Positions 34,901 to 57,651 of a stretch of DNA of 64,000 bases are shown piece by piece. Numbering within the stretch: position 1 is the first letter of the stretch; the number at the start of each line of letters is the position of its first letter. The position numbers and the translations under genes were made by a program. The notes beneath the pieces are model-generated. The model worked only from the letters and a program-made list of their open reading frames with translations. It made no database searches and was not told the origin of the DNA. The stretch comes from Planctomycetota bacterium (lineage in GTDB: Bacteria > Planctomycetota > MHYJ01 > WSZJ01): the NCBI GenBank assembly GCA_038060895.1, contig JBBTCT010000018.1, positions 26,300 through 90,299 on the forward strand. Reading direction: 5' to 3'.

Positions 34901-34901
34901 T
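34857..34901. repeat. attL: 45-bp direct repeat (3' half of tRNA-Thr)
   Basis: gttttgtaaacacgaggttgcgggttcaagtcccgcgcccagctt is identical to 46878-46922. Confidence 0.95.
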
Positions 34902-34964
34902 AGACTTACGTCAATTTGGTTCTCCCGGCACCGTCCTAGGCACCGTTCATGCCTCCGATTCCGC

Positions 34965-36289: not shown

Positions 36290-36326
36290 CCCCTTCTCCT
36301 CCGGTTTGTGTTTCATGCAACACATT

Positions 36327-36344
36327 GTATCGCAACGTATCGCA
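36327..36344. promoter_or_regulatory. Tandem direct repeat GTATCGCA-AC-GTATCGCA (10-bp period), candidate RHH operator
   Basis: Seen about 40 bp upstream of the RHH gene start. RHH repressors commonly bind tandem repeats spaced one helical turn apart. The link is by inference only. Confidence 0.3.
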
Positions 36345-38085: not shown

Positions 38086-38172
38086 AGTTCGCCCGTCGAA
38101 CAGGTCATCCCTCCGCGAGTCCAGTTCCATCGCCGAGGAACCGTTCCGTCGAGAACCGGAAGAGTGTCCCGG

Positions 38173-38907
38173 CTACTTCTCCATTGCGCGTCGCTTCTCA
38201 ATTCGCTCTTTGGCTTTGCGAGCGAAATCCTCATCGGATGCTGAGTCCTTGAACAGGTCCTTGAACGGGTTAACCCGGCTCGCCGCGAAGCTGTCGCGGC
38301 ATGCCGACTGGACTCGCAGGATCATTGCCAAATAGCGAAGCCGCTTTTCCTCCTGGGGAGCGGTCCCGAGGTCCTCAAGGACCGAGTCTTCGACTTCCTT
38401 CCAGAGAGCCCCTCTCGCATCGTCGGTTTTCACCTGAAGAAACGTCTGAATCCATGAGACTTCGCTTTCAGGAAGAGGGCTCTGGAGTCGAAGTAGGTTG
38501 GACAGGCCGCTCGGTTGCAACTTGATGCGGTCCATGTAAAGGGCGTGCATGACGCCTTCGGAGGGAGTCGAGTGGTAGGCCACGCGGTTCATCGACCATC
38601 GGAAACTAGAACTTTGCTCGGACAGATTCAGGTTGCCACGCTCTCCGTCGATGGTGTACCACGTGACCCTTCCATCGACCGCTTGAGCCTCCCACAACTC
38701 CGCACGCGCCGCCGCCGCTTCGATGATTTGTTGAATTGAGTCTTCCTTCGCCTTCCTCTCCGCTGAGAAGCGCGCTTCCAGTTCTTGCCGCTCGTCGCGC
38801 CGTTTGGAATACAGCACGCCACCAACCGAGACGCCAGCAACCGAGACGATGGCAAGCGCCAAGAATCCATATGCTCGCTTCAGTCGTGGCTCCATGCTCC
38901 CGATCAT
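38173..38907 (-). CDS. Hypothetical N-terminally membrane-anchored protein (island cargo X2)
   Basis: The start was set at MIGSMEP (38907). The TM anchor is GFLALAIVSVAGVSVGGVLY, followed by a coiled coil and a roughly 170-aa domain of unknown family. It is convergent with X1. Confidence 0.45.
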   Translation of the reverse strand: MIGSMEPRLKRAYGFLALAIVSVAGVSVGGVLYSKRRDERQELEARFSAERKAKEDSIQQIIEAAAARAELWEAQAVDGRVTWYTIDGERGNLNLSEQSSSFRWSMNRVAYHSTPSEGVMHALYMDRIKLQPSGLSNLLRLQSPLPESEVSWIQTFLQVKTDDARGALWKEVEDSVLEDLGTAPQEEKRLRYLAMILRVQSACRDSFAASRVNPFKDLFKDSASDEDFARKAKERIEKRRAMEK

Positions 38908-39013
38908 ACCTTCCGGGATGTCCGATTCTCGGAACGTGTACGGCAGGAAATCGAGCGAGTAGGCTTGTCCCGGAAGCTCACGCTCTTGCGTCGCATCATT
39001 CGGAGGAAGGTCC

Positions 39014-39412
39014 GTGGAGATTCCGTTCGCGATGTTTGCCGACCACGTCAGTACGACGAACGACGGCAAGCTGAACATCCTCGGCGTCTTTGAGACTGTC
39101 AAAGTCTCCGCCGGGTCAGCGCTGGCCCAGTGCTTCCTCCTCTATCGCGTCGAAGCTAATCGCGAGGAATTGCTGAATCCGCAGGCCGTGGCGGCATCCG
39201 TCCACAAGCCGGACGGAACCGAAGTGATGAGGTTCGAGACTTCCTTGATGTTCGGAAATGTCAGCGGATCGCCTGCGGGAACTGTTTTTCGGGCGAACGT
39301 CGCCCTGTGCCTTCAGGGCGTGAGATTCGACATAGCGGGCGAATGGAAGGCGCGATTCATGGGCGGGGGCGGGGAACTTGCCCAGATCACTCTTCTGGTT
39401 GAATTGCGGTAG
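39014..39412 (+). CDS. Hypothetical small protein (island cargo X3), directly upstream of hicA
   Basis: The GTG 39014 start lies 6 nt after GGAGGA. It is 132 aa, begins ...FADHVSTTNDGKLNILGVFETV..., and looks beta-rich. It vaguely recalls a DUF family seen in prophage regions, but I cannot name it reliably. Confidence 0.5.
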   Translation: MEIPFAMFADHVSTTNDGKLNILGVFETVKVSAGSALAQCFLLYRVEANREELLNPQAVAASVHKPDGTEVMRFETSLMFGNVSGSPAGTVFRANVALCLQGVRFDIAGEWKARFMGGGGELAQITLLVELR

Positions 39413-39435
39413 AGGCCAAACGTCCGGAGCGTGGC

Positions 39436-39687
39436 ATGGTAGGGTCTGCCGCCAAGAAACTTCTCGACCAGATGCGGGCCACCTCGGCGGGATGGTCCGA
39501 ACAGGACTTCTCGCGCTTGTTCCTCGGCTACGGCTTCGACAAAAAGGGCGGCGGCGGTCACACGAAATACTCCCACCCTCGCTATCCTGCGTTGCTCATC
39601 ACGGTGCCTCGTCACCGAAAATTGAAGAATTGGGTAGCCCGAGAAGCCGTTAAACTGATCGAGAAGCTGGAGGCCCTCGGAGGTTAG
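39436..39687 (+). CDS. hicA: HicA-like (YcfA/HicA family) toxin
   Basis: 83 aa. ...GFDKKGGGGHTKYSHPRYPALLITVPRHRKLKNWVAREAVKLIEKLE fits the HicA pattern G.GSH..y.hP...l.vP.H..l. GGAG lies 6 nt upstream of the ATG. Confidence 0.65.
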   Translation: MVGSAAKKLLDQMRATSAGWSEQDFSRLFLGYGFDKKGGGGHTKYSHPRYPALLITVPRHRKLKNWVAREAVKLIEKLEALGG

Positions 39688-39691
39688 CCGC

Positions 39692-40108
39692 ATGAAGAGC
39701 AAAGAAGGAAAGAGCAAGGTAGTGGGAGTCATCGTCGGAACAAAAGGCCGAGTGCAGCACTTCGGCGTTGAGTTGAGTCTTGAAACCGACGATGACGGGA
39801 GTAGCTACTACCTCGCTCGGTCCATCGAAATTCCTGGATGTATGAGTGATGGATCTAGCATCGAAGAAGCGCTGATGAACTTGGGGGACGCGATTCAGCT
39901 CTGCCTTACCACGAGCGAGAGTGCGACGTCAAAGCGAGCGCCCATCGACAAGGGTTATGGTTCGGACTTGTTCGTAAAGGGAGCAAGTTTGCAGCTCTTC
40001 CAAACGAAGTCCTCATCCTCCCCTGCGTCTGCGGTCTCTGGTCCGATTGCGGAATCCAACCTGTATCCGCTGCCGACCAGACGTGGAGCGCTGGCGAACG
40101 CAAAGTAG
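39692..40108 (+). CDS. hicB: HicB-like antitoxin (UPF0150 N-terminal domain)
   Basis: YYLARSIEIPGCMSDGSSIEEALMNLGDAIQLCL is the typical HicB N-domain motif. It starts 4 nt after the hicA stop and has a low-complexity C-terminal tail. Confidence 0.7.
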   Translation: MKSKEGKSKVVGVIVGTKGRVQHFGVELSLETDDDGSSYYLARSIEIPGCMSDGSSIEEALMNLGDAIQLCLTTSESATSKRAPIDKGYGSDLFVKGASLQLFQTKSSSSPASAVSGPIAESNLYPLPTRRGALANAK

Positions 40109-40198
40109 GCGTCGAGTGAAGGGCCGTTCGGAGAGTCTCAGGCTCAAGCTCCCCTTATGGCGCGAGAGGCTTCGATGGCCACGGCGAGCCGCACAGGT

Positions 40199-40426
40199 TC
40201 ATGGCCCAAGCTTCCTTCCGGCAGCGCGCTTCCGGTAGGGGCGGTATCCCTCCGCAAGCCGCTCGCGCCTGAGCTTCTCCACCGCGTCGAGGGGGACACG
40301 GATTGCACGGCCAAAGCGAAAGGAGGGAAGGACCCCGGCCCTGACCATTCTGTAGATCGTGGTCTGGCTTACTTCGAGAAGCCGGGCGACAGTCCTCATG
40401 CTTGCATCGATGGAGTGATCGGGCAT
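40199..40426 (-). CDS. Excisionase/AlpA-like helix-turn-helix protein
   Basis: SMRTVARLLEVSQTTIYRMVRAGVLPSFRFGRAIRVPLDAVEKL is the excisionase-family HTH_17 pattern. The start was set at MPDHS (40426). Confidence 0.7.
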   Translation of the reverse strand: MPDHSIDASMRTVARLLEVSQTTIYRMVRAGVLPSFRFGRAIRVPLDAVEKLRRERLAEGYRPYRKRAAGRKLGP

Positions 40427-40556
40427 GACGGGCTCCAAGTAGGGGGAGGGAGGCACGAATCGGAGGGGCGGTCATTAGGTGCATTCCCCGTGAAAAAAGG
40501 GGGGTCCACGGTGGATCGTTCCACCGACTGAGCTTGGTAGACTGCGGCAGCAGGGC

Positions 40557-40817
40557 ATGGGGAGTTTCTGGCCGCATAAGTCGGAAGAGAGAGCGATGGG
40601 AACAGCCGAGCGAATCGCGGGATGGCTAACGCCCCTCCTAATCCTCGGTCACATTTTCGCCTTCTTCGGCGTGGCAATTCGCCTCTGGGACCACGGCGCT
40701 TGGTTTTGGATTTGGATTTGTGGAGGTGGTGAGATCGCCTGCGGGACGGCATACGCCATAGTGACGTGGCCGATTGCTTGGGTGCTGGCGGGTATCTCAA
40801 AGCTGCTTGGAGAGTGA
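40557..40817 (+). CDS. Hypothetical small membrane protein
   Basis: Two hydrophobic helices (LTPLLILGHIFAFFGVAI, ACGTAYAIVTWPIAWVLAGI). No homology recognised; weak call. Confidence 0.35.
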   Translation: MGSFWPHKSEERAMGTAERIAGWLTPLLILGHIFAFFGVAIRLWDHGAWFWIWICGGGEIACGTAYAIVTWPIAWVLAGISKLLGE

Positions 40818-40845
40818 CTTCGCTCCCGCCTCAACGAGGGAGAAG

Positions 40846-41247
40846 TCACGCCCGCGCCTTGATCGTGGCGACAAGGATCGTTGAGGAAAACTTCAACATG
40901 CCTGTTAGCGCCTCCGCCCTTTGAAGCGGCGTCATCTTCGAGTCCGGGTCGGAAATCAATTTCAGGACGAAGCAGAGCGCCGCCTCAATTTCGTCCGGGC
41001 AGGGAAGAGCCTTCTTCGTCTCGCTCCAATCGAACCGCTTGTCCCTCTCCGCGACTGGATTGGGGACGCGGATTTCGTAGCGCCTGAAGTCGTCGTCCTC
41101 CTCGATTTCCTCTTCCTCGCCCCCGGCTTCGGTCTCCGGTTCCGGCGGCGTCAGGACTTCCTTCAGGTGCGAGCCAAGCGTCCCCTCCCGCGCCCGCTCG
41201 CTCGCCCGGCGGTTGTAGGCGTTGACTTCCTCGTTAGACATGGCCAT
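40846..41247 (-). CDS. Hypothetical acidic protein
   Basis: The start was set at MAMSNEE (41247), overlapping the upstream HTH gene end. It has an acidic stretch EEEEIEEDDD. Family unknown. Confidence 0.4.
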   Translation of the reverse strand: MAMSNEEVNAYNRRASERAREGTLGSHLKEVLTPPEPETEAGGEEEEIEEDDDFRRYEIRVPNPVAERDKRFDWSETKKALPCPDEIEAALCFVLKLISDPDSKMTPLQRAEALTGMLKFSSTILVATIKARA

Positions 41248-41488
41248 TCGATGCCCCCTTCCGGTTCTCACGCTTCCAAGGCTTCGCGGGCGCTTCCAGT
41301 TGGCCCCGTAGCCAAGCGTCGAGGGCCGGGATAACAACGCGCAGATTCCTTCCGATCCGAACGGCCTTGATTTCCCCTGAGTAGATCAGCCGCTCAACCG
41401 TCCGCGTACAGCACTCCAAGGCTTGCGCCGTCTCGCGGATCGTTGCGAAGTTCCTTCCGTCTCCAAGCGTTTCAACGCGCGGAATCAT
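41234..41488 (-). CDS. Excisionase-family HTH DNA-binding protein
   Basis: FATIRETAQALECCTRTVERLIYSGEIKAVRIGRNLRVVIPALDAWL is the HTH_17/excisionase pattern. Confidence 0.7.
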   Translation of the reverse strand: MIPRVETLGDGRNFATIRETAQALECCTRTVERLIYSGEIKAVRIGRNLRVVIPALDAWLRGQLEAPAKPWKRENRKGASNGHV

Positions 41489-41491
41489 TCG

Positions 41492-41890
41492 CTATCCGTC
41501 CTTTCGAGTGGGGGGAGGAACGAAGCGAATCCCTTTCCCGGACAACGCTGCACAGTTTTTTCCGGAGAGCGCCGAGGACAAGCCGGGCTCCGGGAAAGCG
41601 TGGACAGAATGGACACAATTCGACCCTCTCTGAATTCTGTCCATTTCGTCCAAGGTTCCGGAGCCCCCTTCCCGGATTTCAGCCTCCCGGCGGGAGAGTT
41701 CGGCGCTTGCCTCTTGAAGCCAGCCGACGAGTTCGAGCAGAGCGGCCTTGTGATCGCGAACGCGGGCGAGCAGGTCCGGGGTCAGCGCGGCTGTTTGGCC
41801 CCTGACTCGAAGCTCGCCTTCCTCCACGCGAAGCCGGATGCCAGCGGCGTAGAGGTCGGCGACGATGTTGGAGGGATAGGGCAGGGTCAT
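41492..41890 (-). CDS. Hypothetical protein with TubC-N-like N-terminal helical domain (recollection)
   Basis: ADLYAAGIRLRVEEGELRVRGQTAALTPDLLARVRDHKAALLELV resembles the short docking domain often found next to primases in mobile elements. Its start overlaps the primase stop (ATGA). Confidence 0.4.
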   Translation of the reverse strand: MTLPYPSNIVADLYAAGIRLRVEEGELRVRGQTAALTPDLLARVRDHKAALLELVGWLQEASAELSRREAEIREGGSGTLDEMDRIQRGSNCVHSVHAFPEPGLSSALSGKNCAALSGKGIRFVPPPTRKDG

Positions 41891-44694
41891 ACCGTGATCT
41901 CCTCGTCGCCACTTTCCGGGGCTGGTGGATCGCCCCCTGTCGGCTCTTGTTCCCGAGGTTGGGTGGCAGGGGTCGGGACAGAATGGACAGAATCCGCTGC
42001 AACCGCCTGCGGGGCGTGTTCGGCAACCTGGGGGTGAACGTCGAAGACGGCGGAGGGGGGGCGGCCCGGTCCCTTGCGCGTCGGCGCGGGTTGCTCCCGG
42101 AGGAAGCCGTGCGCGACAAGGGCATCGAGGGGCGCGTCAACGCCGTCCACGCTGTCAACCGTCCCACGAAGAGCGCGGTACGCATCGCGTCGGGAAATCG
42201 TCAGCGCGCGCGAATCCGCAAGGAAGACGAGCAGCTCGCACGCGGCCTCAATGTTCGGGTCCATGCCCATAGCGCCATGCGCGGCGCGAGCGTGCGCTTC
42301 GGCGTAGCGCGCGAGCTTGACTCCCCGCTCCATCGTCGCGGAGGTGACGGGCGCGCCCATGGACTTGCCCGGCCCGATGCTGTCCCCGCAATGAAGAATC
42401 CCGGCGACACGAAGAGCGAGCCCGCGCGCGCGGTTTGCCCAGTCGCGCAGGTGCGCCAGGTCGCCACCCGGCTTCATGCGCGCTTCAACGTCGGCGGCGT
42501 ATTCTCCGAGAGTAACTTGCGCTTCGGGCGCGAGCTTGAGCGTCAGGACTTCGGGGCGAACCGTCGAGCCCGGCGGAGCTTGCGGCAGAGGCAGGGTGAG
42601 CAAGTCCTTCACGCGCGCGCCGTACGCTTCGTGCGCGTCGAAGTCACGATGCCGGGGCTTCCACTCGCGGGAACCAATCCTCGTTACCGGCTTCGAGTAG
42701 AACAGGCGGGCAAGTAGGCCACGTCCACGGAGTTCGCGCCGAGCGCCGAAGCCAGAGAGGATTTCCGGCTGGACCGTCAGCCCCACCGTGAGAAGCGGCT
42801 CCCGAAGAATCACGGGCGGACGCGATATCCGATCCACGCGCACGCGGTCCCCGCCGTAGGCTCCGAGGAACAAGTCGAGATTTGCCGGGCCATCGTTGTA
42901 GCGCCCGGTCACGGTTTCGATAACTCCGCCCTCTGCCGCCGCAAAGAGCATCCGCTCCCCGTTCGCTTGCATCAGGTCGCCGAGCTTCTCCGGCGTCACG
43001 TCGCCAACGGTGAGAATCGGCGCGGACGGGATGACGTGCGCCCCCAGCACAAGCTCTGCCTCGCGGAGCGCGGACTCTGCCGTTGCCTTCGCATCCTTCG
43101 TTGCGTTCAACAGCGCTTTCTCTGCCGCCTTGACCTTTGCTCCAAGCACCCGCTGTTCTGCCTTCGCGTTCGCAATCTTAGGTTCCGCATTGCTCGCTAG
43201 GGTCCGCTCGAATTCCCAAACTGGCGCCAGCACCTTCCCGAAAACCGCTGACTTCATTTCGCCGGAAGGCAGGACCAAAACGATGTAGAGGTTGAGAGGT
43301 TCCCTCCATCCCGGCCACGCTTCGATCTGGTACTTACCGGCCAGCGCGGACGCGGCAACCGCTAGCCCGAGCAACGCGGGCAGGTCCGGCGGGCATTGGA
43401 GAGATTCCGCCAACGACTCCGCCGAATCGCCGAGCCACTTGGGGAGAGTGTCGAGCGAGAAGGCGGGCAGGTTCGCTTCCGCGATCATGGGAATCGGATC
43501 GCCCCACGGTTCGGGGGCGGTGCTAGTCGCGGTCGTCCCGTTCGCTCCGGCCTTGCCATTTCGCGGCGTCCCGTAGCCGAGAGCGAGCAGCGCCTTCGCC
43601 GCTTCGGAATCTCTGCCGCCGTGCCGGAGCCGGGAGAAAACCTGCGACGGGCTGTAGCTCTTGTTCACTTCGAATTCGGAGACGTTCGAGCTGAAAGCGT
43701 GGAGGAGCGGCCCGCCCTCCGAGGTCTTGTTATGTCCCAGCGTCGCGCACCTGCCGTCGCCGCCGGGCCGGGTCCAACTCGATTCCCCGTCACGCTCCAC
43801 GCCGTACCGCTTCCATCCCGCCCCTTCGAGCAGCGCGGCCACGTCGCCGCGAGAATTGAAATCCTCAAAGGGAGAGAGCCCTTCACCCTCCGCCCGCGCC
43901 TTCATCGCCGGATTGTTCTTTTTCTCTTCCGCCGGGACGAGCCGTGCGACGGCTTCGAGCTTCTCGCGGGAGACGATGCCGAGCGAACCGGGGGAGACGT
44001 AGACGAGTGCGGCGAGCCGGTGCGGACGTTCGGGAGTAGAGCTACCCTTCCGCGCAATCGTTCCGTAGAGCTTCGCGATTCGAGACGCGTTGAAGCAAGA
44101 CGGATCGACCTTGACCTGATCGGTTCCGAAACGAGCGTTGAGCGCGAGCAGGACACGGCGGAGCAGGTCTTTCGAAGCCTCGTCGTTCGGCAGGTCCAAG
44201 GGGTAGAGAACGTGCGCGCCATTGCCGGAGAGGGCGCGGACTCCCGCCACCCACCCTTGTTCACTCTCAAGCCAAGTCCGCGCTGTCCTGGCTATCTCGC
44301 ACGCTGCTTTGACTTCTGCTTTCGTTGAGGAGATTCCGGCCCGCCGTGTCGCGTCGAAATCGAGGTACAGCCAGCGGACCCGGAGAATGTCCGCGTCTTG
44401 CGTCGTGGACTTCGCGTAGTCGTGAAGCTTGTTCACCTCTGCGAGCGCGAGCAGGTCCGGCGACACGGGATTCAAGACCTGATAAATGCCCTTCGCCGTC
44501 GCGCGCGCTTCGAGCTTGGCAACTTCGGCGGCGACTTTCGCGGGATCGTTGAAGAATCCCGCCGCCGTGAAGGGCTTGCCGCTTCCGCGCGTCGAGGAAC
44601 AGTCGAGCGCCCGCACCTCGAAGACGGAGCCGGATTCATGGAACAGGCGAAGTGTCCGCTCAATTTCTGCGGGATTGATGGTAAGCGCGGTCAC
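41887..44694 (-). CDS. Replication protein: archaeo-eukaryotic-type prim-pol domain + DUF3987 (YfjI-like) domain
   Basis: AEP motifs are present: WLYLDFDATR (DxD) and SGNGAHVLYPL (sGxGxH). The large C-terminal region is like DUF3987. The start was set at GTG 44694, which follows GGAGAAAC by 4 nt and forms a GTGA overlap with the upstream stop. The track ORF to 44946 has an Arg-rich spurious extension. Confidence 0.8.
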   Translation of the reverse strand: MTALTINPAEIERTLRLFHESGSVFEVRALDCSSTRGSGKPFTAAGFFNDPAKVAAEVAKLEARATAKGIYQVLNPVSPDLLALAEVNKLHDYAKSTTQDADILRVRWLYLDFDATRRAGISSTKAEVKAACEIARTARTWLESEQGWVAGVRALSGNGAHVLYPLDLPNDEASKDLLRRVLLALNARFGTDQVKVDPSCFNASRIAKLYGTIARKGSSTPERPHRLAALVYVSPGSLGIVSREKLEAVARLVPAEEKKNNPAMKARAEGEGLSPFEDFNSRGDVAALLEGAGWKRYGVERDGESSWTRPGGDGRCATLGHNKTSEGGPLLHAFSSNVSEFEVNKSYSPSQVFSRLRHGGRDSEAAKALLALGYGTPRNGKAGANGTTATSTAPEPWGDPIPMIAEANLPAFSLDTLPKWLGDSAESLAESLQCPPDLPALLGLAVAASALAGKYQIEAWPGWREPLNLYIVLVLPSGEMKSAVFGKVLAPVWEFERTLASNAEPKIANAKAEQRVLGAKVKAAEKALLNATKDAKATAESALREAELVLGAHVIPSAPILTVGDVTPEKLGDLMQANGERMLFAAAEGGVIETVTGRYNDGPANLDLFLGAYGGDRVRVDRISRPPVILREPLLTVGLTVQPEILSGFGARRELRGRGLLARLFYSKPVTRIGSREWKPRHRDFDAHEAYGARVKDLLTLPLPQAPPGSTVRPEVLTLKLAPEAQVTLGEYAADVEARMKPGGDLAHLRDWANRARGLALRVAGILHCGDSIGPGKSMGAPVTSATMERGVKLARYAEAHARAAHGAMGMDPNIEAACELLVFLADSRALTISRRDAYRALRGTVDSVDGVDAPLDALVAHGFLREQPAPTRKGPGRPPSAVFDVHPQVAEHAPQAVAADSVHSVPTPATQPREQEPTGGDPPAPESGDEEITV

Positions 44695-45005
44695 TTGAGT
44701 TTCTCCGAATTGAGCGGGCTGGGCGCGCGTTCGAGAACTTCGACCTCGTAGACCTTCGCGCGCACCTGATCGAAACCGGTGAATGTGATGCGAACGCGGT
44801 CGCCGATGCATGGATCGGCGGCTCTCCACGCGGCGCGCAGGCGCGGAGGGATGTAGACCGCTTGCAGGATCGACCCAGCGTCGATGAACGCGCGATCCAG
44901 CAGCCCAAACCGGGCGCGGACGTCGCGCTTTACGGCTATGACGCACCCCAAGAGCGAGTCTCCCGGGACCTGGAACCTGTAGCGCAGAAGTGTCGATGTT
45001 TTCAT
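44691..45005 (-). CDS. Hypothetical small protein
   Basis: The start was set at MKTSTLL (45005), after GGAG. 104 aa, unknown family, translationally coupled to the primase. Confidence 0.4.
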   Translation of the reverse strand: MKTSTLLRYRFQVPGDSLLGCVIAVKRDVRARFGLLDRAFIDAGSILQAVYIPPRLRAAWRAADPCIGDRVRITFTGFDQVRAKVYEVEVLERAPSPLNSEKLK

Positions 45006-45152
45006 CTCAGGGACTCCGAAGGCAGGGTTGCGAGGGCGGAGGGAAGGTCCAAGTGGGAGGTGAGGTTCACGGGCGGGCTCGATCCACGCCGAGCCGAACG
45101 TAGCCAAGCGCCCACTTCAGCAGGGGGGATTCGAGAAGGTTGGAGTTCGAGT

Positions 45153-45476
45153 TCACGATTCCTTCCCGTCTCCGCTGCGCTCGTGCGGCAGAGGGTAGGC
45201 CTTCCGCAACGCGTCGAGGATCGCCGGGTTGCCGACCCTTGCCCTTGCTGGGGCTCGGACTGTGATTTCACGGCGGCGGAGCGCGTCGAGAAACGACACT
45301 CTCCGGAGGAGCAGCCTGCGACCGCATCGAGTGAAGGGGCCGCAGAGTCCCTTCCGGATCGCCTTCCATGCGGCGTCTACGCCGACACCCAGGACGCGGG
45401 CCACGTCCTCGACGCGCAGGATTTCAGGCAGACAGGCGCGAGCAACGTCTACTTCGAACGAGGTTTCGTTTTCCAT
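45153..45476 (-). CDS. Putative HTH (excisionase/MerR-superfamily-like) DNA-binding protein
   Basis: ILRVEDVARVLGVGVDAAWKAIRKGLCGPFTRCGRRLLLRRVSFLDAL is HTH_17-like. Weaker match than the other two. Confidence 0.45.
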   Translation of the reverse strand: MENETSFEVDVARACLPEILRVEDVARVLGVGVDAAWKAIRKGLCGPFTRCGRRLLLRRVSFLDALRRREITVRAPARARVGNPAILDALRKAYPLPHERSGDGKES

Positions 45477-45518
45477 ACCCCCTTACGGGGGCAAAGACTC
45501 CCGACTTGAAGAAGAATT

Positions 45519-46649
45519 TCAGAATTCCGAGGGGCCTATTTCCCGAGTCAACCAAGCCTCTTCCGCGGAGAGCGCATGGCTCAGGGAGTCGGGGCGGATC
45601 GTCGGGTGCCGAGCGAGCAAGTCAGCCGGTGACACGGAGGTTTCGTCCGGTATGCCGTGGCGTCCCAGCAGCAGCTGAAGCAGGTTCGCACGGACCACCC
45701 GAACGGCCTCGGACCTGCTTTCGATCCTCGACCGCTGCCTGCAAAGTTCCCGCAATCGCTCTACTTGGCGACAGACAATCCGCTTGCGTTCTTCGTCCTC
45801 GACCGGAATTGTCCCTTCGACTCCGCCGCCGACTTGCTCCAAGTTCTCGACCTGATACTCCCTCGACACAAGTCGGAGCAGTACCTCGCGAATCCGGTCA
45901 GCCGTGACGCGGATTCGAAAAGCTCCCCCACGTTGGCGGGTAAGAAATGGGCCTCCGGCACGGAGAATCCCCGCGACCGTCTCTTGCCGAATGTCCTCAT
46001 CCGGAAGTTCGCAACGCAGCGACTTGACGCTCTTTCGGACTCGATAATCGCGATCCAGCCGCCGGGCCGTCTTGCTTCGTGCCGAGTGAAACAGGGCTTG
46101 GTTGAAGGGGTCTTGGAGGGAGCCGTAGCGAATCTGATCAACGGCGTCTAGGTCTTCGGACCAAATGCCCGGGCCGAAGTCGAGAACCTTGAACTGAGCG
46201 AGCATCCGGCCGTACTTCGAGCGATCCTCGCGGCATCGCTGATCGGTCAGAGCGTCCCACGCAACCCAGGCTCGCATGAGGTCTTGCCGATTCTGTCCCG
46301 GCCGGAGCAAGCTACGCTCGCGAATTTCATCGCCGAGGATGGAAAAAAAGCGGGTGCAGACGCGAACGATTTGCAACCGGCGAACTTCGTAGGTGAGGTA
46401 CGTCTCGGCGGGCATGGAATCCCAAATCTCTCGTCGGATGATCCCGCCAAGCTCGTCTATGCGGGTCAGACCATAGGTCGTGTAGGTATCGAGCCAAGCG
46501 AGCGCCATCTGTCGCGTGAACTTGACCCTCGATACCGACGTGATCGGCCGGTAAAAGGGTCGCTTACTTTTGGGGGGTTCCACGTCTCGCCCTTCCGTGA
46601 AAGCGGGCCGAGGAAGTCGGGGGCGAGTCCGACTTACCTCGGTCCGCAA
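45519..46649 (-). CDS. Hypothetical protein (first gene inward from attR)
   Basis: 376-aa ORF with host-like codon bias. No family recognised and the start is uncertain. Confidence 0.45.
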   Translation of the reverse strand: MRTEVSRTRPRLPRPAFTEGRDVEPPKSKRPFYRPITSVSRVKFTRQMALAWLDTYTTYGLTRIDELGGIIRREIWDSMPAETYLTYEVRRLQIVRVCTRFFSILGDEIRERSLLRPGQNRQDLMRAWVAWDALTDQRCREDRSKYGRMLAQFKVLDFGPGIWSEDLDAVDQIRYGSLQDPFNQALFHSARSKTARRLDRDYRVRKSVKSLRCELPDEDIRQETVAGILRAGGPFLTRQRGGAFRIRVTADRIREVLLRLVSREYQVENLEQVGGGVEGTIPVEDEERKRIVCRQVERLRELCRQRSRIESRSEAVRVVRANLLQLLLGRHGIPDETSVSPADLLARHPTIRPDSLSHALSAEEAWLTREIGPSEF

Positions 46650-46877
46650 GCCTCGCGGGGAGCTACCCCGCGTCAGTCATTCTACCGTCAGAGCAGAGCC
46701 AACTAGCATCGAGGTTGGCACCGTCCCCGGCCCCGTCCGCGCATCGGTTCTCTTCGGCTGAGGTCGGTCCACGTCGGTTTGAACGTGAACCTCCGTTCGG
46801 CTTCAAGCGTTGACCCTGCAAGGGTTTCCCTCTAGGATTCCGCCCGCCGCGGGGTTGAATCCGCGACGGGCGAAACG

Positions 46878-46922
46878 GTTTTGTAAACACGAGGTTGCGG
46901 GTTCAAGTCCCGCGCCCAGCTT
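46878..46922. repeat. attR: 45-bp direct repeat copy of the tRNA-Thr 3' half
   Basis: Identical to 34857-34901. The sequences immediately upstream differ (..cccgt|g.. versus ..aaacg|g..). Confidence 0.95.
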
Positions 46923-47044
46923 CGAATCGAGGTGAGGGAGTCGGTGGAGGCTGCGTCGGGCGGCGGGCAGGGCGATGGCGGAGAACTTCAGCATTTGGCG
47001 CCGCCCGACTCCGCCTCCACACGACTCCCTCACCTCGATTCGAA
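46921..47044. repeat. IR8: long inverted repeat in the tRNA-Thr/tRNA-Tyr spacer
   Basis: Left arm 46921-46964 is ttcgaatcgaggtgagggagtcggtggaggctgcgtcgggcggc. The reverse complement of right arm 47000-47044 is ttcgaatcgaggtgagggagtcgtgtggaggcggagtcgggcggc. The outer 23 bp are perfect. Confidence 0.95.
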
Positions 47045-47101
47045 ATTGAACGACCCGGCGTATTGACAACAGGCGTTTTGACCTTCAAGAATTCGTGACT
47101 C

Positions 47102-47183
47102 GGGCAGATACCCAAGTGGCTAAAGGGGCCAGACTGTAAATCTGGTGGCTATGCCTTCGGGGGTTCGAATCCCTCTCTGCCCA
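47102..47183 (+). tRNA. tRNA-Tyr (anticodon GTA), long variable arm
   Basis: Hand fold: acceptor GGGCAGA/TCTGCCC, anticodon stem CCAGA/TCTGG with loop CTGTAAA, variable arm TGGCTATGCCTTC, T loop TTCGAAT. It aligns closely with the E. coli tRNA-Tyr layout. Confidence 0.9.
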
Positions 47184-47203
47184 TCGAAACGCGCCATTCA
47201 CGC

Positions 47204-47276
47204 GCGGGTGTAGCTCAATTGGCAGAGCGCCAGCCTTCCAAGCTGGCCGTTGTGGGTTCGAGCCCCATCACCCGCT
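47204..47276 (+). tRNA. tRNA-Gly (anticodon TCC)
   Basis: Acceptor GCGGGTG/CACCCGC, D arm TAGCTCAATTGGCAGAGC, anticodon stem CCAGC/GCTGG with loop CTTCCAA, T arm GTGGG-TTCGAGC-CCCAT. Confidence 0.95.
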
Positions 47277-50075: not shown

Positions 50076-52223
50076 ATGGCCGCTTCCACCCGAACTTCGC
50101 TGGCGCTCAAGGGAATGACCTGCGCGAGTTGCGTGGGGCGCGTCCAGACTGCGCTGGCGGCGGTCCCCGGGGTGTCCCGTGCGAACGTCAATCTGGCGAC
50201 GGAGCGCGCCACGGTCGAGTCGGAGGGCGTCGATCCGGTCGCGCTGGTTGCGGCGGTGCGTGGCGCCGGGTACGAGGCGTCGCTGGTCGAAACGGGGGCG
50301 CCTCCGGCCGCGGCGGAGGCTGCGCGCGGCGACCTCCGTCTGCCGGTCGCGCTCGCTGGAGCGGCCGCGCTGATGGCGCTCTCGATGGACGAGATGTTCC
50401 TCGGCCACGGACGCCATTTCGTTCCCGACCCTCCACTCCGGTGGATCCTGCTCGCGATCGCCACTCCGGTCCAGCTGTGGTGCGGTTGGCCCTTCCTGCG
50501 CGGCGCCATCGCCTCGGCCAGGCACTTCGCCGCCGACATGAACACGCTCGTCGCGGTGGGCACCTGGTCGTCGTTCCTCGTCTCGTTCGCGGCGGCGCTC
50601 GGCCACGGCCATGGTTTTTATTTCGAAACCGGCGCGACGATCATCGCGCTGATCCTGCTCGGGCGAACGCTCGAACACCGTGCCCGGCGGCGCGCCGGAG
50701 CGGCGATCCGCAAGCTCATGGAACTGCGGCCCGCGACGGCGCGCGTCGTCGTCGCGGGGACGGAATCGGAGGTGCCCGTCGAGCGGGTCCGCGCCGGAGA
50801 CCTCGTGCGCGTCCGCCCTGGCGAGCGGCTCGCCGTGGACGGCGAGGTCGTCGAGGGCGAGTCGCCGATCGACGAATCCATGGTCACCGGCGAATCCATG
50901 CCCGTCACCCGTCGCCCCGGCGACCCCGTCACCGGCGGCACCGTCAACGGAAGCGGCTCGCTGCTCTTCAAGGCCACGCGCGTCGGCGGCGAAACCCTGC
51001 TCGCGCAGATCGTCCGCGCGGTCGAGGAGGCGCAGACGCGCAAGGCGCCGGTCGAGCGGTTGGCCGACCGGGCTGCGGGCGTCTTCGTGCCCTTCGTTCT
51101 CATCGCCGCCGCCGTGACTTTCGCCGGCTGGTGGATCGCGAAGAACGACCCCGCCGCCGGTTTTCTCCCGGCCGTCGCGGTCCTCGTCATTGCATGCCCC
51201 TGTGCTCTGGGCCTGGCAACGCCGACCGCGGTGATGGCCGGCATCGGCCGCGGCGCGGAAAAAGGGATTCTCATCCGGGGCGGGGAAGCGCTGGAAGTCG
51301 CGCACAAACTGAGGACGATCGTCTTCGACAAGACGGGCACGCTCACCGAGGGCCGCCCCGAGGTCGTTGACGTCCTGACGCTCAGTCCAGACTTCCTCCC
51401 ACTCGCGCTCGCCGCAGAAAAGCGCAGCGAGCACCCGCTTGCCCGCGCCATCGTCCGCTTCTCAGAAAAGAAAACATCGGGCTCCCCCGAGCCCGACGAT
51501 TTCTTCTCGTACTCGGGAAGCGGTGTCGAAGCGACCCTCCAGGGACGCACCGTCGTCGTGGGCTCGCCGGAATTCCTCGCCGGCCGTGGAATCGACGTCG
51601 CCCCCGCCGGGACGTTCGTGATGCGGAACCGCGTCGAGGGGCGCACCGTCGTGGCGGCAGCCATGGAAGAGCGCCTGCTCGGCGCCTTCGCCGTCGCCGA
51701 CCCCGTCCGCCCCGCCGCCCGCGAAGCCGTAGATTCCCTCAAGCGCCGCGGACTTGCCGTCGTCATGCTCACCGGCGACAACGCCGTCACAGCAGAATCC
51801 GTCGCAAAGGCCGCCGGCATCGACCGCGTCGTCGCCCAGGTCCTCCCGAAGGAAAAGGCCGCGAAGATCACGGAGCTCCAGTCCGCCGGCCCTGTCGCCA
51901 TGGTCGGCGACGGCATCAACGACGCCCCCGCCCTCGCCACCGCCGACGTCGGCATCGCGATGGGCACCGGGACGGACATCGCGGCCGAAGCGGGACACAT
52001 CGTGCTGGTGCGGGGCGACATCCGCGACGTGGAGACGGCCATCAACCTGAGCGCGCGCACCCTGCGCACCATCCGCCAGAACCTGTTCTGGGCGTTCTTC
52101 TACAACCTCGTGCTCATTCCCGCCGCGGCGCTCGGCTGGCTCAACCCGATGCTCGCGGCGCTTGCAATGGCGTTCTCGAGCGTGAGCGTGGTGATGAATT
52201 CGCTGAGGTTGAGGCGGGCTTAG
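50076..52223 (+). CDS. copA: Copper-translocating P1B-type ATPase
   Basis: One HMA domain (GMTCASCVGRV), the CPC motif (ACPCALGLATP), the phosphorylation site DKTGTLT, and the hinge GDGINDAP. Confidence 0.95.
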   Translation: MAASTRTSLALKGMTCASCVGRVQTALAAVPGVSRANVNLATERATVESEGVDPVALVAAVRGAGYEASLVETGAPPAAAEAARGDLRLPVALAGAAALMALSMDEMFLGHGRHFVPDPPLRWILLAIATPVQLWCGWPFLRGAIASARHFAADMNTLVAVGTWSSFLVSFAAALGHGHGFYFETGATIIALILLGRTLEHRARRRAGAAIRKLMELRPATARVVVAGTESEVPVERVRAGDLVRVRPGERLAVDGEVVEGESPIDESMVTGESMPVTRRPGDPVTGGTVNGSGSLLFKATRVGGETLLAQIVRAVEEAQTRKAPVERLADRAAGVFVPFVLIAAAVTFAGWWIAKNDPAAGFLPAVAVLVIACPCALGLATPTAVMAGIGRGAEKGILIRGGEALEVAHKLRTIVFDKTGTLTEGRPEVVDVLTLSPDFLPLALAAEKRSEHPLARAIVRFSEKKTSGSPEPDDFFSYSGSGVEATLQGRTVVVGSPEFLAGRGIDVAPAGTFVMRNRVEGRTVVAAAMEERLLGAFAVADPVRPAAREAVDSLKRRGLAVVMLTGDNAVTAESVAKAAGIDRVVAQVLPKEKAAKITELQSAGPVAMVGDGINDAPALATADVGIAMGTGTDIAAEAGHIVLVRGDIRDVETAINLSARTLRTIRQNLFWAFFYNLVLIPAAALGWLNPMLAALAMAFSSVSVVMNSLRLRRA

Positions 52224-53655: not shown

Positions 53656-55119
53656 ATGATCAAAGTCTCTTCCACCAAGCGCCTCGACCGCACCGACGTC
53701 CTCATTCTCTTTGCCGAGGAGCCGTCGTCGAAGGACGTCAGGGCGCTTCACAAGTGGGACGCGCTCTCCGGGGATTCGAGCCGGCGGCTGGCCGCGGCGC
53801 TCGAGAAGGAGAATTTCCGGGGCAAGGTGGGGCAGACTTTCGTGTGGCACGCGGGGGACTCCCGCGCGGAGCGCGTCATCGTCGCGGGCGTCGGAAAGGC
53901 GGCGACGCGCGACGTGGACCTGACGATCAGGGCGGCCGGCGCGGCGGCGAAGAAGGCGAAGGAGATCGGTGCCACGAAGGTGATGTGCGCGCTTCCGCCG
54001 GCAGGCAAGCTCGGCGAGGAACGCAACGCGCAGGCGGTGACGGAAGGGCTGATCCTGGGCGCGTACGAGTTCGACAAGTACCGGCAGCCGAAGGAGACGA
54101 AGGCGTTTGAGGCGGCCGAGATTCTCGGCGCGCCGGAGCGGGCGGTGAAGCTCGCGGAGATTTTTTCGCGCGCGACCGTTTACGCGCGGGATCTCGTGAA
54201 TACGCCGGCCGGCGACTGCGCGCCGCGGCATCTTGCGGAAGCCGCGAAGCGGCTGGCCGGGTCGAACGTGAAGGTGACGGTGTGGGGGCAGAAGGAGATC
54301 GAGAAAAAGGGGATGGGCGGGCTGATCGGGATCGGGAAAGGCTCGGACGAGCCGTATCACTTCATCATGCTGAAGTGGGAGGGGAAGAAGGGCTCGAAGA
54401 AGGTCGCGATTCTCGGGAAGGGGATTACGTTTGATTCGGGCGGGCTGTGCATCAAGCCGGCGGACGGGATGGGGACGATGAAGTGCGACATGAGCGGCGC
54501 GGCGGCGGTGCTGGCGATGTTCAGCGCGCTGCCGGACCTGAAGCCGGACTGCACGGTGTACGGCTACATTCCCGCGGCGGAGAACATGACGGGCGGGAGC
54601 GCGGTGAAGACGGGCGACGTCCTGCGCACGGCGAGCGGGCGGACGATCGAGGTGAACAACACCGACGCCGAAGGGCGCGTCGTCCTTGCCGACGCGATGG
54701 TCATCGCGCGCGAGGACAAGCCTGACGAGATGATCGATCTCGCGACGCTCACGGGCGCCTGCGTCGTCGCGCTGGGCGACCAGGTCGCCGGCATGTTCTC
54801 CAACGACGACAACCTCGCCGCCGGCCTCGACGCCGCTTCCAAGCGCGCCGGCGAGCGTCTCTGGCGGATGCCGATCGTCGCCGAATACCGCGACCTCCTC
54901 CGGTCCGACATCGCCGACATCAAGAATTCCGGCGGCCGCGGCGGCGGCGCGATCCAAGGGGCGCTCTTCCTGCAGGAATGGGCGGGGGACCAGCCTTGGG
55001 CGCACCTGGACATCGCGGGGCCGGCGTGGACTGACAAGGGGATGTCCTTCTGCCAGCCGGGAGGGACCGGGTTCGGGGTGCGGACGTTGCTTGAGTACGT
55101 GACGGCGCAAGGAAAGTAG
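53656..55119 (+). CDS. pepA: Leucyl aminopeptidase (M17)
   Basis: NTDAEGRVVLADA is the M17 signature, with GKGITFDSGG. 487 aa. Confidence 0.95.
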   Translation: MIKVSSTKRLDRTDVLILFAEEPSSKDVRALHKWDALSGDSSRRLAAALEKENFRGKVGQTFVWHAGDSRAERVIVAGVGKAATRDVDLTIRAAGAAAKKAKEIGATKVMCALPPAGKLGEERNAQAVTEGLILGAYEFDKYRQPKETKAFEAAEILGAPERAVKLAEIFSRATVYARDLVNTPAGDCAPRHLAEAAKRLAGSNVKVTVWGQKEIEKKGMGGLIGIGKGSDEPYHFIMLKWEGKKGSKKVAILGKGITFDSGGLCIKPADGMGTMKCDMSGAAAVLAMFSALPDLKPDCTVYGYIPAAENMTGGSAVKTGDVLRTASGRTIEVNNTDAEGRVVLADAMVIAREDKPDEMIDLATLTGACVVALGDQVAGMFSNDDNLAAGLDAASKRAGERLWRMPIVAEYRDLLRSDIADIKNSGGRGGGAIQGALFLQEWAGDQPWAHLDIAGPAWTDKGMSFCQPGGTGFGVRTLLEYVTAQGK

Positions 55120-55175
55120 GGAGTGAGGAGTGTTGAGGGTTGAGCAGGGAGCAGGGAGGAGTCGGGAGATTTGAG

Positions 55176-55424
55176 ATGACCGCGATCTCTGAACTTGGAC
55201 CATCGCTTGTGATCGGGGCTACCTTTACGGCCTTCTCCGCCGTGAAGTTCTATGGCCTCGCCCGCGGCATCGAGGGCGGAGGCGGCAAGCCGCTTCAGAC
55301 GCGCCTCTGCGGATCCTGACCGACCTGGCCGTCGTGGGCGCGGTTCGCGGCCCCGGTCGTGATGCTGGCCATCGGGCTGGCTAACTTCGGCTACGCCATC
55401 GCCGTCCTGTCGCGCAGCTCGTGA
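55176..55424 (+). CDS. Candidate small two-TM selenoprotein (in-frame TGA at 55317-55319 in a C-G-S-[TGA] context); alternatively a recently inactivated CxxC gene
   Basis: Not in the ORF track. Manual translation gives MTAISELGPSLVIGATFTAFSAVKFYGLARGIEGGGGKPLQTRLCGS-TGA-PTWPSWARFAAPVVMLAIGLANFGYAIAVLSRSS-stop. GGGAGA lies 6 nt before the ATG. The G/C-ending codon bias continues across the TGA, and a hairpin lies just downstream. See the finding for details. Confidence 0.4.
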
Positions 55425-55427
55425 GAC

Positions 55428-56633
55428 TTAGCAGGCGCAGATTCCTCCGAACATGGAGGGGCCGCGCCTTCTCGACCGCATTCGCTGCGCGTAGCGTGAA
55501 AGTGTCAGTGCGCGGGATTTGCGTGGCGAAATCGGCGCGAGGCGGGCGACGATGAGGCACGCGATGCAGGCGAGGAAGAGCGTGCCGGCGGCAATGGCGA
55601 GAGTCCGGAGGGCGGATACGGTCCAAGGGTCGAGGCGCGGAGGCCTTGCCGGATTGGATCGCGGCGGCTCGGGCCGCGGCTCGGCCGCAATCAGCTCGGC
55701 CTCGCCGATCGGAAGTTCCGCGAAGTCCCCCGCCGCGGCCCGCGAGATCCCGCACCTCCTGCACTCCGCCAGGACTTCCGCAATGCCTGGCTCCCGTCCT
55801 TCGAGCACCAGCCTCCATTCGACTCGCTGAAACCCGGTGCGCCACCTTTCCGCTGTCGAAACATTGCGCCGGATGGCGGCCATCGCCGCGTCAATACTCG
55901 CTTCCGCACGCCCCGAACCCACGCGCCAGAGGAAAAACGTCGTCTCGAGGCGCCTGCTCAGTTCGCTCTTCGCCGGGTGACCGAGGTCGAGCGCCCGGAC
56001 CCAGGCCCAGATCGCCAGGTTCTGAGCGCCCCGGCGGCTGAGTTCGTCGCCCAGGACGAGCATGGCGTCGGGGAAGCGCGGGCAGCGGGTGGCGAGCAGG
56101 AGGAGGCGGAAGTAATCGACGCGGGGCCCGGCGCCCGGCGTTGGCCAGGTCGAGTACGGCTCGTCCAGAAAGCCGATGTTCCGCTGAGAAGCGCTCCACC
56201 GCAGCGCCCGAAGATGAAAATCGCCGAGGCCCGGGCAGACGTCCTGGTTGCGCAGAAGCGCCGCCGACAGCGATTCGGCGGCGCTCAGGAATCCGCCCGC
56301 GCGCTCCCGCAGGTCCGCAAGAAGCGCCGCGGCGCCGGCGTTTCCTGGGTCGAGCTGTTCGATCGAGGCGAGTACGGTGCCAGCCTCGCCGTCGCGTCCC
56401 AGCGCCGCCCGGGCTTCCGCGAGAAACAGCCGCGTCGGCAAATCCATAATGTTCGACCGGAGCCTTGTGTCCAAACGGACTTCCCGAAGCGTCCAGTATG
56501 TCTCGCCGTGCGAGGGAACCTGACCCGAGACCAGGTCGAACACGTCTTCCGGCTCCGCAGCCGCCGATGGCGGGCAGGCCCGGGAAAACGAACCGGACAG
56601 AATCGTGGCAAGCAGGGCGAGCCGAATCGTCAT
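55428..56633 (-). CDS. Hypothetical exported protein with C-terminal TM anchor
   Basis: The signal-like N-terminus is MTIRLALLATILSGSFS. The C-terminal TM helix is LAIAAGTLFLACIACLIVA. 401 aa, no family recognised. Confidence 0.5.
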   Translation of the reverse strand: MTIRLALLATILSGSFSRACPPSAAAEPEDVFDLVSGQVPSHGETYWTLREVRLDTRLRSNIMDLPTRLFLAEARAALGRDGEAGTVLASIEQLDPGNAGAAALLADLRERAGGFLSAAESLSAALLRNQDVCPGLGDFHLRALRWSASQRNIGFLDEPYSTWPTPGAGPRVDYFRLLLLATRCPRFPDAMLVLGDELSRRGAQNLAIWAWVRALDLGHPAKSELSRRLETTFFLWRVGSGRAEASIDAAMAAIRRNVSTAERWRTGFQRVEWRLVLEGREPGIAEVLAECRRCGISRAAAGDFAELPIGEAELIAAEPRPEPPRSNPARPPRLDPWTVSALRTLAIAAGTLFLACIACLIVARLAPISPRKSRALTLSRYAQRMRSRRRGPSMFGGICAC

Positions 56634-56756
56634 TCCTGTGCGAACGAAAGCCCGGGTGCGCGGTTCAGCTCTTCCGCGTGAGGATCATCTCGACGAACCG
56701 CAACGCGCGCTTCCCACCTCTTGCGGGAATTCAGGCATCCAGCATCTCCCGAAACA

Positions 56757-56972
56757 TCACTTCCGGACCGCGGCCAGTCCCATGTCGAGGAGCGTCTGCT
56801 TTCCCTTACCGCCGCAGCCGTTGCAGCGAAGGTCGACGACTTCGCCTATTTTCACGCCGGCGATGCCGTGGCACCGCTCGCAGGTGCGGAGCGGGACGAA
56901 AATCGCCGCGGCCAGGAGGCCCGCCCCGGCCAGGACAAACAGGAAGCGGCTTCCGCCTTTTTTGCTGCTCAT
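56757..56972 (-). CDS. Small membrane-anchored protein with DnaJ-type CxxCxGxG zinc-finger repeats
   Basis: The sequence is MSSKKGGSRFLFVLAGAGLLAAAIFVPLRTCERCHGIAGVKIGEVVDLRCNGCGGKGKQ... with two CxxC(x)G motifs after one TM helix. The start is ATG 56972 or 56981. The track ORF to 57266 is a spurious extension. Confidence 0.5.
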   Translation of the reverse strand: MSSKKGGSRFLFVLAGAGLLAAAIFVPLRTCERCHGIAGVKIGEVVDLRCNGCGGKGKQTLLDMGLAAVRK

Positions 56973-57018
56973 GCGCCCCATCCTACCGCCGCCGGGGGGC
57001 GGGTACAATCCGCGCCCC

Positions 57019-57651
57019 GTGCCATCCTTCCTGTCCCTCTGCGTCTTCGCGCGCCGCCCCGAGCGCGGCAAGGTCAAGACGCGCCTTGCCGCCGAGATCG
57101 GGGAGGAGGCGGCGCTGGAGGCGTATCGCGACTGCCTGCGGGCGACCTCGGCCCGGGTGGCGGAAGCGGCGCCGCAAGGGGCGCAGCGGGGGCCCTTCGT
57201 GTTCGGGACGCCGGACGGGTGCTCGGTGGACCTGGCGGCGTACTTCCCGCGATGGAGCGCGTTCATGGATCAGGGGGACGGCGACCTGGGCGAACGGATG
57301 GCGCGTGCTTTCCGGAGGCTGTCACCGGCGGTGCTGGTGGGGACGGACTCGCCTGACCTGCCGCTGGAGTATTTTGAACGCGCGTTCAAGGATCTGGAGA
57401 CGCACGATGTCGTGATTGGTCCCGCGGAAGACGGCGGTTACGTGCTGATCGGGATGCGGGAACCGCGCGAAGAGCTTTTCCGGGGGGTGCCGTGGTCGTC
57501 GCCGGACACGCTGAAGGTGACGCTGGAGAAGGCGAAGGGACTGAAAGTATCGCTCCTGCCGGCGTGGTATGACGTGGACACGAAAGCCGGCCTCGAGAGG
57601 TGGAGAGGTCGCCCCATCGTCCCGGCTGGCCCGAAAACGAAAAAGGCATGA
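57019..57651 (+). CDS. DUF2064 (TIGR04282-like) nucleotidyl/glycosyl-transferase-fold protein
   Basis: LCVFARRPERGKVKTRLAAEIGEEAALEAYRDCL...VLVGTDSPDLP...HDVVIGPAEDGGYVLIGM is the typical DUF2064 pattern. The start is GTG 57019 or ATG 56971. Confidence 0.75.
   Translation: MPSFLSLCVFARRPERGKVKTRLAAEIGEEAALEAYRDCLRATSARVAEAAPQGAQRGPFVFGTPDGCSVDLAAYFPRWSAFMDQGDGDLGERMARAFRRLSPAVLVGTDSPDLPLEYFERAFKDLETHDVVIGPAEDGGYVLIGMREPREELFRGVPWSSPDTLKVTLEKAKGLKVSLLPAWYDVDTKAGLERWRGRPIVPAGPKTKKA

Follow-up and report, generated by a model that had tools for sequence, protein, structure and literature searches.

Does the 308-bp gap between pepA (53656-55119; Peptidase_M17, E = 3e-117) and the convergent gene ending at 55428 hold a gene whose internal TGA codon is read as selenocysteine (Sec)? 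The question concerns a 64-kb stretch of Planctomycetota DNA, called the window here. An earlier note had drawn one frame through the gap, from ATG 55176 through 47 codons, a TGA at 55317-55319 and another 34 codons to a TGA at 55422-55424, with one hydrophobic helix in each half and the internal TGA three residues after a Cys (C45-G-S-TGA), and had proposed a candidate selenoprotein. On re-reading, the positions of the ATG, of the GGGAGA ahead of it and of the TGA codons, the motif and the translation of the split frame all proved exact, and hydropathy agrees with one helix per half. The gap holds one 82-codon gene, and its features are collected in Table 1. GGGAG is found at a similar distance ahead of the start in a close orthologue (L010). 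Here we argue that 55176-55424 is very probably a genuine Sec-encoding gene, for an 82-residue integral membrane selenoprotein, and that comparison of homologous sequences strongly supports the selenoprotein reading.

Table 1. Features of the candidate selenoprotein gene, in window coordinates
Feature	Position	Strand	Basis and remarks
Shine-Dalgarno-like GGGAGA	55164..55169	+	6 nt before ATG 55176; read directly
Predicted complete gene, 82 codons including one Sec-UGA	55176..55424	+	Translation; P0257 alignment; family profile
Predicted first transmembrane helix, residues ~4-30	55185..55265	+	AlphaFold2, column conservation, hydropathy; conserved G14, F17, T18, K24, G27
Basic glycine-rich loop RGIEGGGGKP...RLCGS-U-PTWPS with predicted active site	55266..55331	+	K+R counts; invariant G34, G46, C48, W51
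Cys45 codon, first residue of CxxU	55308..55310	+	Cys at -3 in 100/101 truncated (TGA) forms, 61/117 Cys forms
In-frame TGA, predicted to be read as selenocysteine, residue 48	55317..55319	+	Cys in 117/117 homologues; TGA in 16/16 copies
Lower stem CGACC (55321-25)/GGUCG (55355-59) round upper hairpin	55321..55359	+	Read directly
Predicted second transmembrane helix, residues ~53-80	55332..55415	+	Only if the UGA is decoded; GC3 0.97, LAIGLxNxxW
SECIS-like upper hairpin GGGCGCG-GUU-CGCGgCCC	55336..55353	+	Loop 55343-55345, one bulged G, spacing 23 nt

The same preference for G/C-ending codons had been claimed for both sides of the internal TGA. Such codons are preferred on both sides but not equally, GC3 in frame being 0.74 upstream vs 0.97 downstream, with 0.90 in pepA. 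Since the other two frames downstream of the TGA have GC3 of 0.56 and 0.62, the coding signal runs past the TGA and is stronger there. Comparison of the window gene with its L010 orthologue (81% identical) gives differences at the three codon positions of 7/4/18 upstream and 4/3/9 downstream of the TGA, the downstream substitutions being six synonymous and six non-synonymous. This bias to the third position shows purifying selection on the protein on both sides of the TGA. A GC3-based screen of the window for other genes with an in-frame TGA returned antisense-frame artefacts only.

Searching with Cys in place of Sec found two full-length proteins of 84 residues (P0002 and P0003), which read ...RLCGSCPTW... 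at the site, together with three 47-residue proteins that end in ...CGS or ...CGT. A profile search extended the family to 253 members, nearly all of 79-90 residues, named "hypothetical" and lacking a Pfam domain. In an alignment of 117 full-length members, the residue at the position of the window TGA is Cys in every one, and the other invariant positions are P9, G14, G27, G34, G46 and W51 only. One full-length Cys form, P0257, can be aligned over the TGA with the window protein at 59% identity (E = 4e-31), with identity at 28 of the 34 positions that follow the site. The motif LAIGLxNxxW after the site is common to TGA forms and Cys forms, and loci of the two kinds can be closely related and syntenic (window, L014, P0257, P0002). 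The homologues thus read CGSC or CGTC at the site; CGSC or CGSU, with conservation running on past the TGA, is the pattern that had been named beforehand as support for a Sec codon.

The family is sizeable and stands apart. Among 1.84 billion cluster representatives, an exhaustive HMMER search picked out 116 clusters at 50% identity, at least 32 of them truncated at the C-G-[T/S/A] site, and among these 116 clusters there were no distant relatives in named families. With E up to 10 allowed, the window protein, P0002 and P0003 gave no match beyond noise to Pfam-A and NCBIfam release 20.0 (June 2026), and the precomputed Pfam field is empty ("-") for all listed homologues, full-length and short. 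The earlier note had been unable to place the protein in a known selenoprotein family, and these searches bear it out.

What do the truncated entries represent? A profile of the N-terminal half retrieved 104 short proteins of 44-73 residues; nearly all stop one codon before the invariant Cys, in C-G-[T/S/A], 74 of them in LCGT and 15 in LCGS. The Cys three residues before the site is present in 100 of 101 truncated forms. At the DNA level we could read 16 gene copies (window, L010 (= L001), L014, L008, L015, L009, L011, L022, two in L016, L017, L018, L019 (= L020), L021, L023 and L024), and the codon at the site is TGA in all of them. After the TGA, each of the 16 has 32-39 open codons that encode the second helix (...LFLAIGLxNLxW...), so that frame and helix are kept in the TGA orthologues, on which the earlier proposal had been made to depend. 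The TGA-form proteins are 43-85% identical to one another. Two near-identical copies in L016 (10001-10250 and 19550-19800) lie 9.5 kb apart on a 5.65-Mb contig, each with a 221-aa FG-GAP_3 gene upstream, which adjoins one copy and is separated from the other by a 189-aa gene; this pair is a segmental duplication.

One alternative is that translation ends at the TGA as usual, giving a 47-residue one-helix peptide, with the hairpin that follows acting as a terminator or regulatory element and the downstream frame a relic. Gene callers annotate about 100 database clusters in just this way, and the hairpin, rich in G and C, is close to where two convergent genes end. Yet this reading would leave unexplained the 32-39 open codons in 16 of 16 copies, in which the helix of the Cys forms is encoded, as well as the third-position-biased substitution and the in-frame GC3 of 0.97 beyond the TGA. 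Moreover, no T-run terminator was detected, and the stop falls exactly on the one invariant Cys of the family. We consider ordinary termination highly improbable.

The selenoprotein reading predicts an RNA signal behind the UGA. Both stems and the GUU loop drawn in the earlier note have exact coordinates: the window hairpin has a stem of 4+3 bp, a GUU triloop and a folding energy of -12.2 kcal/mol, and its loop lies 23 nt after the UGA, inside the range of 16-37 nt for bacterial SECIS (bSECIS) elements. In all TGA forms a hairpin follows the UGA at 16-23 nt, and its triloop contains G-U (GUN, or GGU for the L014 group). Its common form is AGCCGCG-GUN-CGCGGCU, with a closing pair that is G-C in L008, L009, L011, L015 and L022, A-U in L016, L017 and L018, and G.U in L019. 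In L021, AAUCGC/GCGAUU replaces AGCCGC/GCGGCU, which amounts to two compensatory outer pairs. The L010 hairpin is the window version with one A.C mismatch, L014 and L023-L030 have GGCCGCUCC-GGU-GGGGCuGGCC, and the bulged hairpin of the window type is backed by three lineages only. The lower stem has counterparts in the same clade (GACC/GGUC in L010, CCCGAU/AUCGGG in L014) and is not conserved outside it; its covariation, coming from three lineages only, is suggestive. An alternative window hairpin, GUCGUGGGC-GCG-GUUCGCGGC (55331-55351), was rejected, as it is not kept in L010.

Conservation of the upper hairpin is seen in the pairing itself. In an alignment of 13 sequences, 86.5% of cells are paired, compared with 33-51% when the partners are slid by 1-3 columns; six of the eight hairpin pairs show changes on both sides, and the observed covariation was reached by none of 500 column shuffles. 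RNAalifold, given the sequences from the UGA onward only, returned the same 7-bp stem with three compensatory pairs. With spacings of 16, 19 and 23 nt, the hairpin sits in different codon registers between clades, and where pairs are compensated, the amino acids encoded by both arms change: GGU/GCG to AGU/UUG turns Gly-Ala into Ser-Leu, and Gly to Ser goes together with Ala, Thr or Pro to Leu. Because the registers differ and the compensatory changes alter the protein, we take the hairpin to be conserved at the RNA level. At residue 56 (window 55341-55343), the Cys forms have a near-invariant Asn (106/117) and the TGA forms an Arg, whose CGG codon is part of the 3' arm of the hairpin; we regard this replacement as the mark that an RNA constraint has left on the protein. 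Of the five Cys-form loci with DNA, none shows a conserved hairpin in the homologous position, and two lack any qualifying hairpin. Conservation of the hairpin in orthologous loci, which the earlier note had left to be checked, is therefore found together with covariation, and in the TGA forms only.

How well does the hairpin fit existing models? PMC13188914 summarises the bSECIS model of Zhang and Gladyshev: a loop of 3-9 nt with G in position 1-2, usually followed by G or U, on a stem of 4-16 bp, 16-37 nt from the UGA and with a minimum free energy no higher than -7.5 kcal/mol. All these limits hold for the window and for 11 of the 12 other lineages, and L008 departs in energy only, at -6.6 kcal/mol (short segment). 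A cmscan of 55250-55450 at E up to 10 found no match to Rfam, including bacterial SECIS families such as RF01989 and RF01990; it returned only chance matches to microRNA and cis-regulatory models, and Rfam gave nothing at its gathering thresholds either. Folded alone, 55310-55375 has z = +1.38, and 187 of 200 shuffles fold as well, so that the significance of the hairpin comes from the comparative data and not from the single sequence. A covariance model built without the window's clade (R1) scored the window hairpin at 10.5 bits (E = 1.8, rank 11 over 64 kb). This low score indicates that in GC-rich DNA the motif is not specific genome-wide, a GC-rich model of 23 nt being too short for that, and we therefore rely on its position relative to the UGA and on covariation.

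A second complementarity, AGCCGC...GCGG(C/A)U of 5-6 bp, lies just 5' of the Sec/Cys codon (window 55285-55317; L014 8380-8404). It is found in the Cys-form loci L004, L005 and L007 as well. The codons that form it are those for the conserved Lys-Pro and Cys-Gly, and as both arms have the same sequence as the arms of the downstream hairpin, alternative pairing is possible. R1 picks it up, and we rejected it as a Sec signal because the Cys forms have it too.

With the hairpin conserved, the reading to which the earlier note would otherwise have fallen back, a recent TGC to TGA nonsense mutation in a Cys-form gene, is effectively refuted. Such a mutation needs a single base change, and most of the family are Cys forms. 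On the other hand, the same TGA occurs in lineages whose proteins are only 43-62% identical, in these lineages the downstream frame is intact and the hairpin co-evolves, and the gene order is conserved in several related assemblies of the window's clade. The pseudogene reading fails because about 100 clusters stop at this exact codon and because of the third-position bias downstream, and we put its chance close to nil.

A further possibility is read-through without selenium, in which a near-cognate or suppressor tRNA, helped by the hairpin, would insert Trp, Cys or Gly at the UGA. Four entries have W, G or R at the site (CGTW, CGTG or CGTR in P0299, P0293, P0246 and P0247) and continue past it with hairpin-encoded residues (...SRSLRL...); these entries probably either come from gene calling under alternative genetic codes or reflect real substitutions, the former being the simplest account of those with W or G. 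Also in line with this possibility, the Sec machinery is not among the genes found in the window: selA, selB, selD and tRNA-Sec were found neither within the 64 kb nor in the fetched flanks of the other loci, the 35 predicted window proteins that were scanned include no SelA, SelB or SelD, and the only tRNAs in the window are tRNA-Thr, tRNA-Tyr and tRNA-Gly. An AIRS-domain gene at 23641-24705 was considered as a possible selD and rejected, since it is purM (TIGR00878, 395 bits). However, Cys at the site in 117 of 117 homologues makes a classic Sec/Cys pair, and the hairpin is of the SelB type, its small apical loop having G-U at nt 20-28 from the U of the UGA (PMC13188914). TGA is moreover the commonest ordinary stop in the window, where it ends 18 of the 41 genes called, and it is the terminal stop of 10 of the 16 selenoprotein gene copies, including the window gene itself. 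This use as an ordinary stop indicates that the recoding is specific to the site and that there is no general reassignment of TGA. Read-through without selenium is in our judgement very unlikely. For some Planctomycetes, Gemmata obscuriglobus and Isosphaera pallida among them, the literature reports complete selA/selB/selD sets (PMC4807772). Two species-representative genomes have the gene, both of them Planctomycetota MAGs and both with TGA forms.

We therefore return to decoding as Sec and to the protein that it would produce. AlphaFold2, run on the Cys homologue P0002 with the 117-sequence alignment, gave a model (pLDDT 93.3) with helices at 4-30, 40-45 and 53-83, a structured loop and no sheet. 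Within the loop, the motifs RGI-x-GGG-x-KP and R-L-C-G-S-[C/U]-P-[ST]-W-S-[RK] are conserved. Over the 117 homologues, Lys and Arg number 4.56 on average in the loop, 0.14 at the N-terminus and 0.94 at the C-terminus, which by the positive-inside rule would place the loop and its Sec in the cytoplasm, at the membrane surface. On the cytoplasmic face of the membrane we place a probable thiol/selenol active site. A Foldseek search of the PDB with the model found no structural analogue (best E = 2.4).

Which residue does the work is suggested by the pattern of Cys residues. Cys48 is invariant in the Cys forms, and their second Cys is at position 37, 42 or 45 (at 45 in 61 of 117) or absent (in 23 of 117). 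Since the second Cys can move or be lost, residue 48 would be the one essential nucleophile. A partner thiol appears to be favoured, especially with Sec as the nucleophile. In L021 (1032-1290) the first Cys is lost and a Cys stands three residues after the Sec (LFGT-U-PTC...), and this U-P-T-C arrangement indicates that the partner thiol can move to the other side of the Sec.

Taken together, the mechanism that we propose is as follows. The ribosome would read the UGA at 55317-19 as Sec, with the hairpin at 55336-55353 acting as a bacterial SECIS element that recruits SelB with Sec-tRNA(Sec), and translation would run on past the UGA, over the second transmembrane helix, as far as the true stop at 55422. 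The result would be a helical hairpin, probably with both termini outside the cytoplasm, whose basic glycine-rich cytoplasmic loop could set the Cys45-x-x-Sec48 pair at the membrane interface. In the chemistry we prefer, Sec48 would then act as nucleophile in a thiol/selenol site that is anchored in the membrane and serves redox reactions or the handling of soft metal(loid)s, and may form a selenenylsulfide with Cys45 that is recycled by cytoplasmic thiol reductants. A membrane-anchored redox site cycling through this Cys45-Sec48 selenenylsulfide is our working model, held tentatively. The main alternative, binding or hand-over of soft metals or metalloids in the manner of the cytosolic Cys pairs of Mer transporters, seems to us rather unlikely.

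Could the neighbouring genes point to a partner? The order pepA, selenoprotein gene, convergent gene (379-401 aa), DUF2064, (GT2), CAP/TPR is shared by the window, L014 and L023-L030. By clade, the neighbours are pepA, an FG-GAP gene, an HTH regulator, a HoxH/HycI hydrogenase operon, or a methyltransferase with an ABC-2 transporter. Across the loci compared, no conserved operon partner offers a functional clue, and because the neighbourhoods differ, neither a partner nor a substrate can be named. In L019 (8532-10794; = L020), the selenoprotein gene lies in a hydrogenase operon, between the HoxH-type NiFe-hydrogenase large subunit and the HycI maturation protease. In L017 (6890-8581), a SulP-type sulfate transporter is present as two ORFs (372 and 152 aa) that adjoin an ArsR-type HTH gene, close to the selenoprotein gene; the split may be a frameshift or an assembly artefact. 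In the window itself, a copper/heavy-metal P-type ATPase with an HMA domain (50076-52223) is two genes upstream of the selenoprotein gene, and a TIGR04282 gene (DUF2064, the "arsenosugar biosynthesis glycosyltransferase" family; 56605-57651) lies just beyond the convergent neighbour; no link of either to the selenoprotein was established. Further away, the stretch 34828-47276 looks like an integrated mobile element, with a tRNA-Thr (34828-34900) immediately followed by a minus-strand tyrosine integrase (34965-36122), a minus-strand DUF3987 primase-like protein (41887-44946) and an end near tRNA-Tyr and tRNA-Gly (47102-47276).

It is likely that the window gene is the founding example of an undescribed family of integral-membrane selenoproteins of about 82 residues, with Sec forms found so far in Planctomycetota genomes and metagenomes, in which a glycine-rich basic loop would hold a selenol at the cytoplasmic membrane interface. 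If this is true, the arrangement of the selenol could be a new membrane-bound chalcogen/metalloid-handling site or lipid-phase redox site, and not one of the soluble thioredoxin type. Few bacterial selenoproteins are integral membrane proteins. As this one would be among the smallest, it should be tractable for asking why selenium is used over sulfur at a membrane interface, and the syntenic Sec and Cys loci are natural pairs for comparison. The family would also be a clean example of an RNA element shaping a protein sequence, with Arg fixed where the Cys forms keep Asn. For the databases, where about 100 clusters are cut to about 47 residues, a family model that allows U at position 48 would correct the entries.

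How does this family compare with known selenoproteins? The 2026 catalogue of known and predicted prokaryotic selenoproteins relies on Pfam, TIGRFAM or NCBIfam models to define nearly all of its families (PMC13188914 Table 1), and the 111 families of BSepDB derive from the same lists. Our profile scan covered Pfam-A and NCBIfam; the few families that have cd or PTHR identifiers only are soluble folds. In the literature on the CGSU/CGTU motif and on Planctomycetota selenoproteins, we found no description of the family.

Among predicted membrane and transport selenoproteins are the MerT-like PF02411 (C/SxxU), YeeE/YedE, SaoP and SO_0444 families (PMC13188914 Table 1). Like them, the window protein would have Sec in an integral membrane protein with a Cys-rich or CxxU-type motif, and those families are linked to the handling of soft metals or chalcogens. 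Unlike them, it has two helices only and stands alone, and its neighbourhood shows no conserved metal resistance genes. It has no match to PF02411 at E up to 10, and its model has two long helices vs three in MerT. A CxxU motif with CxxC homologues is also shared with the SelW-like and AhpD-like proteins (Rdx fold), and a selenenylsulfide redox cycle is plausible here too; unlike the thioredoxin fold, the protein is predicted to be an all-helical transmembrane hairpin with no sheet, and about half of the Cys forms do without Cys45.

The prototype of a bacterial selenoprotein gene with a SECIS in its coding region is E. coli fdhF. As in genes of this type, the UGA aligns with a Cys, a stem-loop follows immediately downstream inside the coding sequence, its small apical loop has G-U on the 5' side, and databases annotate the gene as truncated. 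Most family members have this G-U at nt 23-24 counted from the U of the UGA, which we take to be its position in fdhF as well. Unlike the fdhF type, the hairpin of the family is a short 7-bp stem with a triloop, or the bulged 4+3 bp stem of the window, and the window protein is unrelated to formate dehydrogenase or to the other listed selenoprotein families. On comparative grounds, the proposed mechanism is the standard bacterial arrangement of a Sec-UGA with a coding-region SECIS, and since neither Pfam and NCBIfam nor the literature gave a match, we would class the window gene in a new family of standard bacterial selenoprotein.
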